Source of the DNA: a virus
DNA: 60,628 nucleotides
Strand: one strand, 5' to 3'
Virus record (IMG/VR): IMGVR_UViG_3300020811_000088
Coordinates: 1-60,628 of that record
The translations under genes and the position numbers were made by a program. This document shows positions 32,579 to 35,744 of the stretch, in pieces. How positions within the stretch are numbered: the stretch's first letter is position 1; each line of letters begins with the position of its first letter. The notes below the pieces were generated by a model, which saw only the letters and a list, made by a program, of their open reading frames with translations, did not search any database and had not been told where the DNA came from.

Positions 32579-33769
32579 TTAATTGCCTTTGATGCAAAGG
32601 ACTTGTTTGAGGGTGTGCATCACTTCTACGAGATCTGTTTGGTTGGCCATCACTTGGTCGATGTCTTTGTAGGACGCTGGGATTTCGTCGATGACGCCTT
32701 CGTCTTTGCGGCACTCTACGCCTTCGGTTTGGGCGATAAGGTCGGTGAGAGTAAAACGACGTTTAGCTTCGGCACGCGACATAACACGTCCAGCTCCATG
32801 GGAGCACGAACAGTAGGATTGAAGGTCACCTTTTCCCCGAACAATGTAACTGCGTTGACCCATACTTCCTGGGATGATTCCGAGGTCACCTTCACGCGCA
32901 CGGATCGCACCCTTTCGAGTAACCCACATGTTTCGTCCAAAGTGATGTTCTTTTTCAACATAGTTGTGGTGGCAGTTGATTGCTTCCTGTGTGATGGTGA
33001 ACTCGATTGGCACTTCTTTGCGCATGGCCTCGATGACTTGGATCATCATGCGGCGGCGGTTCTCAAGCGCATAGTTCTGCGCCCAGCCCACTGCTGCCAT
33101 GTAGTCGTCGAAGTCTTCGGCGTCCTCTGGAAAGTACGCGAGGTTGTCGTCAGGCAGCGTGATGAAGAACTGCTCCATCTGGCGCTTGGCCTTGGCGATG
33201 TAGTGCGTCCCAATCATGTTGCCGATACCGCGTGAGCCCGAGTGCAGCATGATCCATACGTCCTGGTTCTCGTCAATGCAGATCTCAATGAAGTGATTGC
33301 CAGACCCGAGCGATCCCATCTGGCTTGCGGCCTTCGCATGAAACTTGTCGTAGTCGCCGTTGTACAGCGGGTGAATAACTGTCTTGTACAGCAAGCCGTT
33401 CACCTCACCAATGTCGGTGCTGTCATCATGCGCGCCACCAACACCCAGGGGCACGCGCTTCTCGATCTCGTCGCGCAGAGGCTTTAGGTTGTCTGGCAGG
33501 TCGGACGCCTTGAGTGACAGGCGCACAGCGTTCATGCCGCAGCCAATGTCCACCCCTACCGCGGCAGGGATGACGGCCTTCTCGGTGGCAATGACGGTGC
33601 CCACGGTCGATCCGATGCCAGCGTGTACATCAGGCATGCAGGCCACGCCATTGCTGTTGATGAAAGGTAGGCGTGAAAGGTTCTTTAGCTGGGTCAGTGC
33701 GGATGCTTCCACTTCGTCTGTCCAGATCTTGATTGGACGTGCACCCTCTTCTTGGATGACTTGTTTCAT
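32579..33769 (-). CDS. rtcB: RtcB 3'-phosphate/5'-hydroxyl RNA ligase
   Basis: MPDVHAGIGSTVG, DIGCGMNA, GSGNHFIEI, HSGSRGIGN, CHHNY, TRKGAIRA, IPGSMG, SCSHGAGR; 396 aa. Confidence 0.9.
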   Translation of the reverse strand: MKQVIQEEGARPIKIWTDEVEASALTQLKNLSRLPFINSNGVACMPDVHAGIGSTVGTVIATEKAVIPAAVGVDIGCGMNAVRLSLKASDLPDNLKPLRDEIEKRVPLGVGGAHDDSTDIGEVNGLLYKTVIHPLYNGDYDKFHAKAASQMGSLGSGNHFIEICIDENQDVWIMLHSGSRGIGNMIGTHYIAKAKRQMEQFFITLPDDNLAYFPEDAEDFDDYMAAVGWAQNYALENRRRMMIQVIEAMRKEVPIEFTITQEAINCHHNYVEKEHHFGRNMWVTRKGAIRAREGDLGIIPGSMGQRSYIVRGKGDLQSYCSCSHGAGRVMSRAEAKRRFTLTDLIAQTEGVECRKDEGVIDEIPASYKDIDQVMANQTDLVEVMHTLKQVLCIKGN

Positions 33770-33874: not shown

Positions 33875-34159
33875 ATGCGAGTTGCAGCACGACGAGACGC
33901 GAATGAGGATCAGGTAATGAGTGCGCTGCGTGCGTGCGGCGCCTTTGTCAAGCAGATCAATGACGGCGGTACGTTCGATTTATTGGTGTGGTACAGAGGG
34001 CACACGCTGCTGCTGGAGGTGAAGGATGGCCGTAAGCCTCCGTCAGCGCGCGAGCTGTCGCCGGCGGAGCAGAAGTTCCATGATGCGTGGCCTGGAACCA
34101 ACTTGCATATCGTGCTCAGTCCGGAAGATGCGCTTGAGCTGCTGAAAAGATATGGCTAG
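33875..34159 (+). CDS. VRR-NUC-like PD-(D/E)XK nuclease
   Basis: GTFDLLVWYRGHTLLLEVKDGRKPPSARELSPAEQKFHDAW...HIVLSPEDALELL. Confidence 0.55.
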   Translation: MRVAARRDANEDQVMSALRACGAFVKQINDGGTFDLLVWYRGHTLLLEVKDGRKPPSARELSPAEQKFHDAWPGTNLHIVLSPEDALELLKRYG

Positions 34160-34201
34160 AATGGGGCCGTGTTTCATGGTTGGTTCTCCGAGGGAACTTT
34201 A

Positions 34202-34229
34202 GTGGCTCCGTAACTGGGGCCACTTTTTT
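34202..34229 (+). terminator. Rho-independent terminator
   Basis: GTGGCTCC-gtaact-GGGGCCAC (one G-U pair) followed by TTTTTT. Confidence 0.75.
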
Positions 34230-34395
34230 CACCAAGACGCATGGGGATTGGTGGCATGGTCGTACAGAGCCAAAAACGATTTAATGCGAATCGTGCCAGT
34301 CCTCAGCCGTGTTGGTGGTGTTACGGGTTAGCGCCGTAGCAGAATTCTGAATGAAAAGAACACTGCTTTATGTGGGCCACCAACAGCCTGTTAAG

Positions 34396-34424
34396 TTTAC
34401 AACCCTGATTTTTGGGTTTACAAT
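34396..34424 (+). promoter_or_regulatory. Sigma70-type promoter for the tRNA genes
   Basis: TTTACA (34396..34401), 17-nt spacer, TACAAT (34419..34424); shares the downstream TCCGC with the promoter at 34787. Confidence 0.55.
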
Positions 34425-34469
34425 CCGCGCATCATGAAATCCCAAGCCCTTAACCCCCGACCGACTAAG

Positions 34470-34545
34470 CAGTGTGTAGCTCAGTTGGTAGAGCGCGTGC
34501 TTTGGGAGCATGAGGTCGCAGGTTCGATCCCTGTCACACTGACCA
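34470..34545 (+). tRNA. tRNA-Pro (anticodon TGG), CCA encoded
   Basis: Cloverleaf built by hand: acceptor CAGTGTG/CACACTG, D arm GCTC-AGTTGGTA-GAGC, anticodon arm CGTGC-TTTGGGA-GCATG, T arm GCAGG-TTCGATC-CCTGT, A73, CCA. Confidence 0.85.
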
Positions 34546-34664
34546 ATTCCCGATATTGATCCCCTCGCACAAGGGGGCAGTATTTTGCTAAGGACGCAAA
34601 GCGGTCTGTAAAACCGATGCCGATGCGCTGGCCAGGATCGTTACCTGGATGTCCCACCAAACAT

Positions 34665-34740
34665 TCCCTGATAGCTCAGTCGGTAGAGCGCCGGACTGTT
34701 AATCCGTAGGTCCCTGGTTCGAGCCCAGGTCGGGGAGCCA
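34665..34740 (+). tRNA. tRNA-Asn (anticodon GTT), CCA encoded
   Basis: Acceptor TCCCTGA/TCGGGGA (one G-U pair), D arm GCTC-AGTCGGTA-GAGC, anticodon loop CTGTTAA, T arm CCTGG-TTCGAGC-CCAGG, G73, CCA. Confidence 0.85.
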
Positions 34741-34741
34741 A

Positions 34742-34762
34742 AAGCGACATCATGTCGTTTTT
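34742..34762 (+). terminator. Weak hairpin plus T5 after tRNA-Asn
   Basis: AAGCGACA-tca-TGTCGTTT followed by a T run. Confidence 0.4.
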
Positions 34763-34786
34763 CAAATTGATACGTGTTGAAATGTG

Positions 34787-34817
34787 TTGACACGACCCGG
34801 AAATTTGTGGTTATAAT
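34787..34817 (+). promoter_or_regulatory. Near-consensus sigma70 promoter firing into the non-coding locus
   Basis: TTGACA (34787..34792), 19-nt spacer (long), TATAAT (34812..34817); preceded by GTGTTGA direct repeats 10 bp apart (34774, 34784). Confidence 0.5.
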
Positions 34818-34823
34818 CCGCCC

Positions 34824-34944
34824 AGCTAGGTGTGAGAGCCAATGCGAATGAGCCGTTAAGCCTGATCCCGACCCCGTATGGGGTAGTCAAAGTCACAAAC
34901 TTTGATTCTCTCACCGGGGTCAGACTTAACGGCTTTTTTGTTTT
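34824..34944 (+). ncRNA. Candidate ~120-nt structured RNA (three-way junction closed by a 19-bp stem, with intrinsic terminator)
   Basis: 34852..34870 pairs with 34915..33 (one G-U pair, one C-A mismatch). Inner hairpins ACCCC-gtat-GGGGT (34871..84) and CAAAGT-cacaa-ACTTTG (34888..904). Followed by TTTTTTGTTTT. Confidence 0.45.
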
Positions 34945-34945
34945 C

Positions 34946-35084
34946 AAAATACTTGATGATGGTGCGGCGTGGAAGGACACGCAAACCCCAAAAGTCTTGC
35001 CCGAATGTGCCTACGGGTCGAATCACGGACGGAACCGTGGCCGGACAGCCGGAATCAATCCCGGTCACCATCATCAAGTATTTT
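34946..35084 (+). ncRNA. Candidate ~140-nt structured RNA (or MITE-like element) closed by a perfect 19-bp stem
   Basis: 34946..34964 (AAAATACTTGATGATGGTG) is the exact reverse complement of 35066..35084. The interior has GCGTG-gaagga-CACGC (34967..82), GCCCG...CGGGT and CACGG-acggaa-CCGTG hairpins. Confidence 0.45.
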
Positions 35085-35372
35085 TCTCTCACCATCCCAG
35101 CCGTTCTCCTCACGTTAGCACTGGGCCTGCATGGGCCGCGAGGAAGAAAACACCGGCCCTGGTACACCCCCAGATTAAAAGCCGTCCAGCCTGTCAGCGA
35201 GGGACTGGGGAAGATAGAGCGGCAAGCGGTGAAGACAAACGCCCTATCGACGAATCGCTGCCTTATGGGTTTGCTAGGAGAGCACTGTGTGTGCCCTCTG
35301 GGCAGGGAGTGAACAGCCGTGGCTATCACCCTTGGGGGCCGCTGCGCCAAAAATTTTTGCTGAAACGGAAAT
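35085..35372 (+). ncRNA. Remaining ~290 nt of the non-coding locus (structured, function unknown)
   Basis: No SD-led ORF; hairpins include GGGCCG-15 nt-CGGCCC (35133..59) and TGCCC-tct-GGGCA (35292..304). Confidence 0.3.
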
Positions 35373-35404
35373 AAAAAACCCGCCTCAGTGGACGGGTCTG
35401 TTTT
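35373..35404. terminator. Bidirectional terminator (A-tract / hairpin / T-tract) between the non-coding locus and the GIY-YIG gene
   Basis: AAAAAACCCGCC-tcagtg-GACGGGT-ctgTTTT. Confidence 0.7.
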
Positions 35405-35744
35405 AAGAATTAACCGCAAGCTTCAATATCTTTTCTAGGTTTAGCGGTGCGCAGTTGTTCTTCTCGTGCCCGTTAAGGGGTGGATTAAACATGTGGATGT
35501 AAAGCGATTCCAGTACGTCGAGGTGCTCCTTTGGGCATGGCAGTACGGTAAAGCTGTCAAAGTTCTTGTGTGTGTGGGAGCTTATTCTGGAGTAGATGTT
35601 TACTGATTGCCCGACGTAAATAATTTTGTTGTTTGATATGAGGAAGTAAACGCCAGTAAATTTTTGCCACGGCTTAGCGGCGTTTAAGATTGACTCTTCT
35701 GAAACGAGCGACTTGCTGGTTATTTTGTTCGACAACTCACTCAT
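35403..35744 (-). CDS. GIY-YIG nuclease domain protein (homing-endonuclease-like), AT-rich
   Basis: GVYFLISNNKIIYVGQSVNIYSRISSH matches GIY-(10)-YIG...R..H. Confidence 0.6.
   Translation of the reverse strand: MSELSNKITSKSLVSEESILNAAKPWQKFTGVYFLISNNKIIYVGQSVNIYSRISSHTHKNFDSFTVLPCPKEHLDVLESLYIHMFNPPLNGHEKNNCAPLNLEKILKLAVNS

Follow-up and report, generated by a model that had tools for sequence, protein, structure and literature searches.

A promoter–pseudoknot–terminator cassette of uncultured phages as a candidate gate ahead of large noncoding RNAs

Architecture of the locus

The DNA analyzed here (hereafter the window) is the whole 60,628-nucleotide (nt) stretch of the IMG/VR virus record IMGVR_UViG_3300020811_000088. 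It is a phage genome that encodes terminase, portal, capsid-like, ERF, PD-(D/E)XK nuclease, and primase proteins, and its terminase is 50 to 56% identical to the terminases of DSL-LC04, 023Pt_psg01, and the pelagiphages HTVC023P and HTVC027P. The element in question occupies positions 34824 to 34944 of the plus strand and forms, together with the promoter in front of it, a compact cassette (Table 1). The cassette consists of a sigma-70-type promoter, an ~115-nt pseudoknotted RNA that is built from four helices (P1 to P4), and an intrinsic terminator that is made up of P2 and a U-tract. It is followed by a long hairpin, termed the H domain, and by a large structured RNA domain of a sequence type that is termed type C.

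An earlier note, made from the letters of this DNA alone, had described a discrete transcription unit with its own promoter and intrinsic terminator, in which a long stem with one C-A mismatch and one G-U pair encloses two perfect hairpins and runs directly into a T-run. All of these parts were found again by reading the sequence, with the mismatch at 34861/34924 and the wobble pair at 34866/34919, and the five-codon frame that had been mentioned (ATG CGA ATG AGC CGT TAA) is indeed the only ATG-led frame inside the element. A perfect TTGACA can now be added to the TATAAT named there. The two hexamers are separated by a spacer of 19 nt, or of 18 nt if the −10 box is read as TTATAA. The discreteness of the unit is likewise supported, since the tRNA unit upstream ends with a hairpin and T-run of its own. 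At the 3′ end, a G+C-rich stem of 19 base pairs is followed by the U-tract, which is the signal of an intrinsic terminator, and RNA polymerase is predicted to be released there.

The fold of the element lies far beyond chance. RNAfold gives it a free energy of −55.8 kcal/mol, compared with −30.3 ± 3.4 kcal/mol for 200 dinucleotide shuffles (z = −7.6), none of which folds as well. The program returns exactly the three-way junction that had been proposed in the earlier note. The junction is not a plain one, however, as a fourth helix, the pseudoknot, connects the loop of the 5′-terminal hairpin P1 to the junction strand between P4 and the 3′ arm of P2.

Table 1 Positions of the cassette, the RNA domains behind it, and the neighboring features in the window
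Feature	Position	Strand	Description
Promoter-like site of the tRNA pair	34396-34424		Upstream of both tRNAs
tRNA-Pro (TGG)	34470-34545	+	ARAGORN
tRNA-Asn (GTT)	34665-34740	+	ARAGORN
Small hairpin and T-run	34743..34762	+	Closes the tRNA-Pro/tRNA-Asn unit; sequence reading, ARAGORN
−35 hexamer	34787..34792	+	TTGACA (perfect); sequence reading
−10 hexamer	34812..34817	+	TATAAT; predicted transcription start ~34824
P1	34825..34845	+	5′-terminal hairpin (GCUAGG / CCAAUGC, imperfect); loop holds X; register in the window set by hand
X	34832..34838	+	Pseudoknot 5′ strand GUGAGAG, in the P1 loop; perfect complement of 34908-34914
Linker	34846..34851	+	Purine-rich GAAUGA, P1 to P2
P2 5′ arm	34852..34870	+	GCCGTTAAGCCTGATCCCG; long closing stem, also the terminator stem
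P3	34871..34884	+	ACCCC-GUAU-GGGGU; perfect hairpin
P4	34887..34905	+	UCAAAGU-CACAA-ACUUUGA; variable, optional; core 34888-34904 plus one U-A pair
X′1	34908..34914	+	Pseudoknot 3′ strand CUCUCAC; joins P4 to the P2 3′ arm without a spacer
P2 3′ arm	34915..34933	+	CGGGGTCAGACTTAACGGC; pairs with the P2 5′ arm
U-tract	34934..34944	+	TTTTTTGTTTT; with P2 the intrinsic-terminator signal; predicted 3′ end of the short RNA
H domain	34947..35083	+	Long hairpin, arms AAAUACUUGAUGAUGGUG / CACCAUCAUCAAGUAUUU; between terminator and type C
X′2	35086..35092	+	Second CUCUCAC copy, after the terminator
Type C	35097..35338	+	Large structured RNA domain, ~240 nt; core GCCUGUCAGCGAGGGAC at 35189-35205; ends CACCCUUGGGGG
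Hairpin and T-runs common to the RNA locus and the GIY-YIG gene	35376..35404		Detected on the minus strand by a terminator scan; plus-strand stem has a C.A mismatch, then CUGUUUU
GIY-YIG nuclease-domain open reading frame (ORF), 113 aa	35403-35744	−	Converges on the RNA locus, with the terminator hairpin in common

Conservation and distribution of the family

Relatives of the element were found in three ways: by blastn against GenBank phages, by an exact-match scan of IMG/VR for the P3 hairpin, and by a scan anchored on the 3′ arm of P2. The blastn search yielded a single homolog, the metagenome-assembled siphovirus MW202545.1, in which the element follows six tRNAs. The P3 scan gave 37 true copies, 31 of them distinct, and the 3′-arm-anchored scan gave at least 120 matches in viral contigs of IMG/VR and at least 120 in JGI metagenomes, including one Tara Oceans scaffold. 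The element is present in hundreds of uncultured phages. A strict pattern matched only eight times in 185,579 reference bacterial and archaeal genomes, and all eight matches lack the rest of the element; therefore the family looks confined to uncultured phage sequence, and a prophage or host origin was rejected.

The element is real and conserved. A covariance model built from nine well-aligned copies finds one match in each of 96 loci, with scores of 68 to 139 bits (98.1 bits for 34822-34939 of the window), whereas the antisense strand reaches only 27 to 43 bits in these loci and 35.6 bits in the window. Together with the G.U pairs, this asymmetry indicates that selection acts on the plus-strand RNA. 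The alignment of the 96 copies, all from viral contigs, is fitted to the nested structure of the model, and parts of the sequence were preset by the search patterns of two of the scans. In this alignment, 96.0% of the cells form standard pairs, against 79.7% after shuffling. Both sides have changed in 30 of the 45 pairs, and pairing falls to 35 to 49% when the 3′ partners are slid by one to three columns. The comparison of homologs that the earlier note had put forward as a check thus came out in its favor, the complementarity of the long stem being kept through compensatory changes.

The helices differ in the way they are conserved. In P1 (model helices 1 and 2), both sides change in all seven pairs, and 82 to 87% of the cells are paired. 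The columns between P1 and P2 contain five residues in 77 of 94 members, and 88% of the residues there are purines; as GAGA or GAAA, this linker is able to pair with the U-tract and thereby to lengthen P2. P2 has 18 modeled pairs, 10 of them doubly changed, and is paired in 99.2% of the cells. Two irregularities of this stem are nearly constant. The middle (tenth) position is non-Watson-Crick in 80 of 94 members (U.U in 47 and C.A in 26, together 73), and exactly one G.U pair is found near the top of the stem, at either of two neighboring positions, in 93 of 94. A possible explanation of the mismatch and the single wobble pair is negative design that prevents mispairing with the C-run and G-run of P3; alternatively, they may serve for recognition. 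The P3 stem ACCCC/GGGGU is almost invariant, with its closing A-U pair replaced by G-C in four members, and its loop varies (GUAU, GAAU, GCAU, GCAA, or UUU). P4 shows covariation in eight of eight modeled pairs, its loop is mostly CAAAA, CACAA, or CACUA, and the hairpin is missing altogether in loci L093 and L097. One copy (L101:42-144) combines the P2 5′ arm of one subtype (ACCGCTAAGAAAGATCCCG) with the 3′ arm of another (CGGGGTCAGACTTAACGGC), which leaves two mismatches; it is either a natural recombinant of cassette subtypes or a chimeric assembly.

The signals at both ends of the RNA are conserved along with the fold. A −35/−10 pair is kept in 82 of 94 relatives, with an exact TTGACA at matching distance in 73, and in those 82 the −10 box ends 13 to 20 nt (mostly 13 to 17) before X, which places the transcript start at the foot of P1. 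A T-run of five to nine residues (mode six) comes right after P2 in all 94 copies.

No RNA family in Rfam accounts for the element. The Rfam search proposed in the earlier note was run with Rfam 15 on the window at the gathering threshold and on both strands, and it reports the two tRNAs only; at E ≤ 10, the region 34300-35500 gives no match on the element. Twelve related loci yielded nothing at the gathering threshold, and five related loci at E ≤ 1 gave only weak chance matches, such as mir-191 at 30 bits. The families without a match include C4 antisense RNA, Phage_pRNA, GOLLD, ROOL, YrlA, pistol, hatchet, twister, hammerhead, 6S, and all riboswitches. ARAGORN, which reads tRNAs and transfer-messenger RNAs, likewise detects nothing on the element and only tRNA-Pro and tRNA-Asn upstream of it. 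No description of the element turned up in a literature search that used both sequence strings and topics, a possible overlap with the 10,006 candidates of an IMG/VR structured-RNA survey (PMC10690425) lying outside its reach.

The pseudoknot

The two strands of the pseudoknot, X and X′1, form a perfect 7-nt complement with a duplex energy of −9.7 kcal/mol in the window. Within the family, changes in one strand go along with changes in the other. The commonest combinations are GTGGAAA/TTTCCAC (29 members), GTGGAAC/GTTCCAC (24), GTGGAAG/CTTCCAC (17), and GTGGAAT/ATTCCAC (10), and rarer ones include GTGGCAA/TTGCCAC (5), GTGAGAA/TTCTCAC (3), GTAGAAG/CTTCTAC, and others. The helix is absent from the covariance model, and it is nonetheless paired in 98.8% of the cells of the 96-copy alignment; its last pair alone shows all four Watson-Crick types (AU in 36, GC in 21, CG in 16, and UA in 12 members). 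Judged by its sequences, the predicted X/X′1 pseudoknot is about as clear as covariation evidence gets. When the nascent RNA is folded up to 34914, before the 3′ arm of P2 is made, X is already paired with X′1 in the minimum-energy fold of most members.

A further copy of the 3′ strand (X′2) follows the terminator in the window. Copies of this type lie 2 to 10 nt past the T-run in about a third of the family. Of 82 GTGGAA members, 29 carry an exact copy of their own X′ core no farther than 40 nt from the T-run, and TCTCAC occurs near the T-run in two of nine GTGAGA members compared with none of the 82 others. In the window, L065, and L193, the GG-to-AG change of X is matched in X′2, but the variable last position is not. 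As a regular partner of X it was rejected, being present in only about one-third of members and covarying only partly.

Noncoding RNA behind the terminator

The earlier note had seen no gene behind the terminator. This holds for protein genes: 92 distinct loci offer 700 nt of sequence or more, and in every one of them what comes first after the T-run is not a protein gene but a conserved noncoding region of roughly 150 nt or more. The first credible ORF begins more than ~140 nt past the T-run, usually more than 230 nt; a few ORFs that start earlier overlap the conserved RNA sequence and appear to be spurious. It does not hold for RNA, as a conserved structured RNA with no recognizable promoter follows in every locus examined. 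The gap between T-run and conserved RNA measures only ~20 nt, and no promoter hexamers are seen in it; therefore read-through from the cassette promoter is the simplest route to the downstream RNA. For the same reason, the two interpretations offered in the earlier note fare differently. An independent small RNA is at best half of the story, whereas a terminated leader or gate fits better because the conserved, promoter-less structured RNA is there in every locus.

The downstream region falls into at least five sequence types, of which the window carries type C. The 17-nt core of type C is found in at least 120 viral contigs of IMG/VR. The RNAalifold prediction for 31 diverse copies contains 32 pairs, and both sides have changed in 23 of these, so that type C appears, by its covariation, to be a real and widespread RNA. 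It has no Rfam match (34300-35500 at E ≤ 10) and no blastn match in cultured phages, and the ORFs that overlap it have no Pfam hit. Type C may be the RNA that is chiefly responsible for the function of the locus. In six loci (L181, L184, L186, L189, L194, and L198), a new TTGACA-17-TATAAT promoter and then another structured stretch (GGCCCATGGACAACCGAAAGGCCCATG) are found past type C; these phages carry arrays of several noncoding RNA genes.

When the window is aligned with other type C loci, the H domain, with its arms AAATACTTGATGATGGTG / CACCATCATCAAGTATTT and its inner hairpin GCCGGAATCAATCCCGGT, stands out as an insertion. Its stem and inner hairpin recur inside the downstream RNAs of type A (L003, L005, L015, and L030). 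In L183, type C is preceded by a long hairpin that is related to the H domain and shares its inner hairpin. As an RNA domain, the H domain seems to be optional and movable.

The cassette itself is modular. Near-identical cassettes of one class, termed class I, precede at least five downstream RNA types. Conversely, a search for type C that took no account of the cassette gave 95 distinct loci, 11 of which carry a strict class I cassette. In 46, a module of divergent sequence has the same layout: behind a −10 box lies a hairpin, the loop of which is complementary to the 7 nt that immediately precede the 3′ arm of an ~17- to 23-base-pair stem, and the stem is followed by a T-run (for example, GTTGtCGTAGCAAgtGAC ... 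TTGCTAC|CGG...GCAGTTGTAAGCGGCTTTTTT). Seven loci have a terminator with no detected pseudoknot, and 31 have no module, with type C following directly after an ORF. As the layout recurs with different sequences, the architecture itself appears to be under selection, and since cassette and type C each occur with other partners, neither depends on specific mutual contacts.

Neighboring genes

An RtcB RNA ligase gene (32579-33769, minus strand, Pfam E = 3e-127) adjoins tRNA-Pro and tRNA-Asn, ~1 kb from the element, and together with the two tRNAs it looks like an RNA-repair and tRNA-replacement module. A link of the element to RtcB or to Y-RNA-type RNAs was considered and rejected: RtcB is found in none of 29 related loci, and the YrlA model of Rfam gives no match. 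A linkage to tRNAs was rejected as well, as tRNAs stand beside the element only in the window and in MW202545 and in none of 12 other loci.

Upstream of the tRNAs lies a structured stretch (34297-34390) in which a stem GTTGGTGG/CCACCAAC surrounds ACGGGTTAGCGCCGT. Its homologs are located directly upstream of the cassette in L150, L222, L111, L142, and L061, and in the window the tRNA-Pro/tRNA-Asn unit appears to have been inserted between this stretch and the cassette. Still further upstream (34134-34230), a promoter-like TTGAGC-17-TAGAAT overlaps the end of a 94-aa ORF and is followed by a terminator hairpin (34201-34224 and T-run), with GGGGCC at 34163-34168 as a possible alternative pairing partner of the 5′ arm of that hairpin. 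The whole feature may merely be the ORF's own terminator. On the other side of the cassette, the GIY-YIG ORF may be a free-standing homing endonuclease.

The protein genes that come next vary between loci, and a conserved protein partner was therefore rejected, there being no common one. They include an epimerase, a glycosyltransferase, a PAPS-reductase-like protein, a 2OG-Fe oxygenase-like protein, a terminase, a primase-helicase, or a converging gene, the first four being named from their sequences and from the annotation of L001 without a family search. In two loci only (L002 and L005), an ORF of 178 to 206 aa with a C terminus resembling sigma-70 region 4 (SRERIRQIEAKAIRMLK) lies ~0.8 to 1.3 kb downstream of the cassette on the opposite strand; the window has no counterpart. 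No phage RNA polymerase was detected among the large ORFs checked.

A proposed gate before a large noncoding RNA

The reading favored here, to which we give about even weight, is that the cassette yields an RNA of ~120 nt and gates read-through into the large noncoding RNA behind it. It builds on the observed fold and conservation of the element, on the strand under selection, on the conserved promoter and T-run, and on the constant noncoding domain downstream; what we infer is that the polymerase both stops and reads through, and that the balance between the two is controlled by the pseudoknot. Host RNA polymerase would start at ~34824, and P1, P3, and P4 would fold on emergence. Once made, CUCUCAC (34908-34914) would pair with the P1 loop, and the 3′ arm of P2 would next close the 19-base-pair stem directly before the U-tract. 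Transcripts that stop here would be compact RNAs of ~117 to 121 nt, while those that read through would run on into the H hairpin and type C, to ~35340 to 35400, with the hairpin at 35376..35404 as their possible end.

The ratio of stopping to read-through would be set by the pseudoknot, as it abuts the top of the terminator stem and tethers an upstream hairpin ~5 nt from the foot of that stem. Its effect could go in either direction. It might pre-organize the distant 5′ arm and speed up closure of the stem, leading to more termination, or the structure beside the terminator might hinder completion of the hairpin in the exit channel of the polymerase, as is reported for stable structures in that position, leading to less. 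Stable structures that adjoin intrinsic terminators alter termination without sequence overlap (bioRxiv 10.64898/2026.06.17.733018). Going one step further, the cassette could be a sensor, with a small molecule, an ion, a host factor, or polymerase state as its input. It would flip the terminator by contact without sequence overlap and thereby switch on a family of large ornate RNAs that are interchangeable; this extension is doubtful.

Several points weigh against the gate. A stem of 19 base pairs with a U-run of 6 to 9 nt should be a strong terminator, and the amount of read-through might be negligible. In that event, the source of the downstream RNA might be a promoter of an unrecognized type. 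Nascent-RNA folds show no conserved competitor for either arm of P2, such as classical attenuators and riboswitches have, although the C-run and G-run of P3 might swap partners with the top of P2. No regulating signal or factor was identified for the cassette, and the variable protein genes nearby yield no clue to function. In addition, the family is drawn exclusively from uncultured contigs, and, because members were collected with exact patterns, P3, X′, and the P2 3′ arm owe part of their apparent conservation to ascertainment, a bias that the set anchored on type C corrects only in part.

Alternative explanations

The terminator could also be efficient, so that the pseudoknotted RNA of ~120 nt is itself the product, for instance a stable decoy, a sponge, or a protein-binding RNA that is made early and abundantly. 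A strong consensus promoter and a canonical terminator agree with such a stand-alone RNA, as do the pairing of nearly every conserved nucleotide, which is typical of RNAs that act through their shape, and the neighborhood in the window, where two tRNAs and RtcB suggest stable RNA and RNA repair. A precedent is the short terminated phage transcript StxS from PR′-tR′, which is a functional small RNA (PMC7547250). We consider this explanation rather unlikely, though, because it accounts neither for the constant promoter-less structured RNA within ~20 nt in 92 of 92 loci nor for the analogous cassettes that precede the same large RNA elsewhere, and because RtcB and the tRNAs are absent from most loci. 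Moreover, the element has the terminator hairpin with U-tail of an Hfq-type small RNA but no conserved single-stranded seed for pairing with a target, as the conserved segments all lie in helices and X is predicted to pair in cis. The opposite explanation, that the U-run is structural, paired with the purine linker, and does not stop the polymerase at all, would turn the cassette into the 5′ domain of one long ornate RNA. The complementarity of linker and U-run, the constant presence of RNA downstream, and the X′2 copy, which could close the whole domain in a long transcript, are consistent with it. It is improbable nevertheless, given that the same cassette is joined to at least five unrelated downstream RNAs, that type C occurs with other cassettes or with none, and that the stem with at least five U residues, the defining signal of a terminator, is kept in 94 of 94 copies.

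A ligand-sensing riboswitch is a special case of the gate, in which the four-helix pseudoknotted junction would be an aptamer for a small molecule or ion that lies in or abuts the terminator and switches the downstream RNA. Junction nucleotides are conserved (CCG-ACCCC...GGGGU and CAC-CGGGGUC), the G.U wobble is obligatory and the mid-stem mismatch conserved, the pseudoknot adjoins the expression platform, and there are precedents in tug-of-war ZTP switches and in terminator-embedded aptamers. A covarying structured domain upstream of an expression platform is indeed found here; by itself it is insufficient for a riboswitch. The genes downstream have no coherent function that would suggest a ligand, it is hard to see how a ligand would control the formation of a stem as stable as P2, the divergent modules of the same layout have different junction sequences, and none of the riboswitch families of Rfam 15 matches, all of which leaves this possibility with little probability. 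Smaller still is the chance that the element is a processing signal, either a self-cleaving ribozyme of an unknown class or, through the ~20- to 25-base-pair P2, an RNase III site that frees the downstream RNA. The compact pseudoknotted junction resembles small ribozymes, among which pistol uses a 5′ hairpin loop in its pseudoknot, and the conserved 1 × 1 internal loop in a long duplex likens P2 to the RNase III sites of phage T7. However, the element matches no ribozyme family of Rfam, lacks unpaired nucleotides that are invariant and might make up an active site, and positions its pseudoknot strand differently from pistol. Lastly, ORFs of 136 to 187 aa cross the region on both strands, so the sequence might be a short protein-coding frame, or its palindrome might be a DNA site for protein binding or replication. 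Readings at the protein or DNA level are effectively excluded by the strand scores, the covariation, and the lack of any Pfam family in these ORFs: indels are not multiples of three, the variation in the stems is compensatory, and selection on one RNA strand is reflected both in the G.U pairs and in bit scores that differ threefold between the strands.

Relation to known systems

By analogy, the element would work most like an attenuator or a lambdoid PR′-tR′ unit, and it resembles the layout of tug-of-war switches. As in attenuators and PR′-tR′ units, a strong constitutive promoter is followed by a stop ~100 to 200 nt downstream, which produces a discrete short RNA, and the remainder is reached by read-through only. 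The short terminated transcript of lambdoid PR′-tR′ (the lambda “6S” RNA, StxS in Stx phages) is a small RNA itself (PMC7547250). Compared with PR′-tR′, the short RNA here has a covarying pseudoknotted fold in which the terminator stem is the closing helix, noncoding RNA instead of late genes lies behind it, and no Q-like antiterminator or qut-like site was identified. In the tug-of-war switches (bioRxiv 10.64898/2026.06.17.733018), a stable or ligand-bound structure directly adjoins an intrinsic terminator, without nucleotides in common. The element has this layout, as P1 is locked by the pseudoknot ~5 nt upstream of the terminator stem, with 5 nt in the columns between P1 and P2 in 77 of 94 members, and does not overlap P2. 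The difference is that the published structures lie wholly upstream of a simple hairpin, whereas the P1 loop is tied here to a strand inside the multi-branched loop of the terminator. By comparison with these switches, the element could lower termination in the tug-of-war manner.

Other systems share single traits with the locus. In riboswitches of the HMP-PP/thiS class, a structured aptamer domain is placed inside the terminator hairpin; the element also has a structured domain within its terminator hairpin, but with a much longer stem and with no consistent regulated gene. The T4 tRNA cluster gives rise to the species 1 and 2 RNAs (rnaC and rnaD), which are small, stable, structured, and processed from the tRNA precursor. 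They resemble the element in lying beside phage tRNA genes, and differ from it in that the element has its own promoter and terminator. The P4 CI RNA and the P1/P7 c4 RNA (RF01695) are phage leader small RNAs, too, with a loop that has complementary copies in the same transcript, which here would be X with X′1 and, facultatively in about one-third of members, X′2. The element has no match to that covariance model, its complementarity would be intramolecular, and no RNase P-type processing signal is seen. The phi29 pRNA (RF00044) is a phage RNA of ~120 nt with its own promoter, a three-way junction, and covarying loop complementarity. Its model does not match either, the phages here are of a different type (relatives of the HTVC023P group), and a terminator and a downstream RNA are attached to the element. 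Furthermore, the probable partner of the loop is here a junction strand of the same molecule and not a second loop as in the intermolecular ring of the packaging motor. At the level of the whole locus, a likeness exists to GOLLD and ROOL, large, ornate, highly structured phage RNAs that are often found near tRNAs (PMC12286853), as the downstream RNA is in the window. Neither of the two Rfam models matches here, most loci have no tRNA nearby, and no counterpart to the 5′ cassette has been described for them.

Significance

A structured leader with an intrinsic terminator is a known arrangement; what is unusual is a pseudoknot that bridges an upstream hairpin into the terminator, and a noncoding RNA as the gated product. 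If the cassette should turn out to be a sensor, it would represent a phage-specific riboswitch-like class that is dedicated to noncoding RNAs, and a natural, modular form of control by a pseudoknot set against a terminator. As a small modular cassette, it could also serve as a tunable terminator part. The element is very common in uncultured aquatic phages and yet uncatalogued in Rfam 15, and the type C RNA is even more widespread than the cassette. The locus marks “islands” of stacked noncoding RNA genes in phages that are related to the abundant podoviruses of the HTVC023P type.

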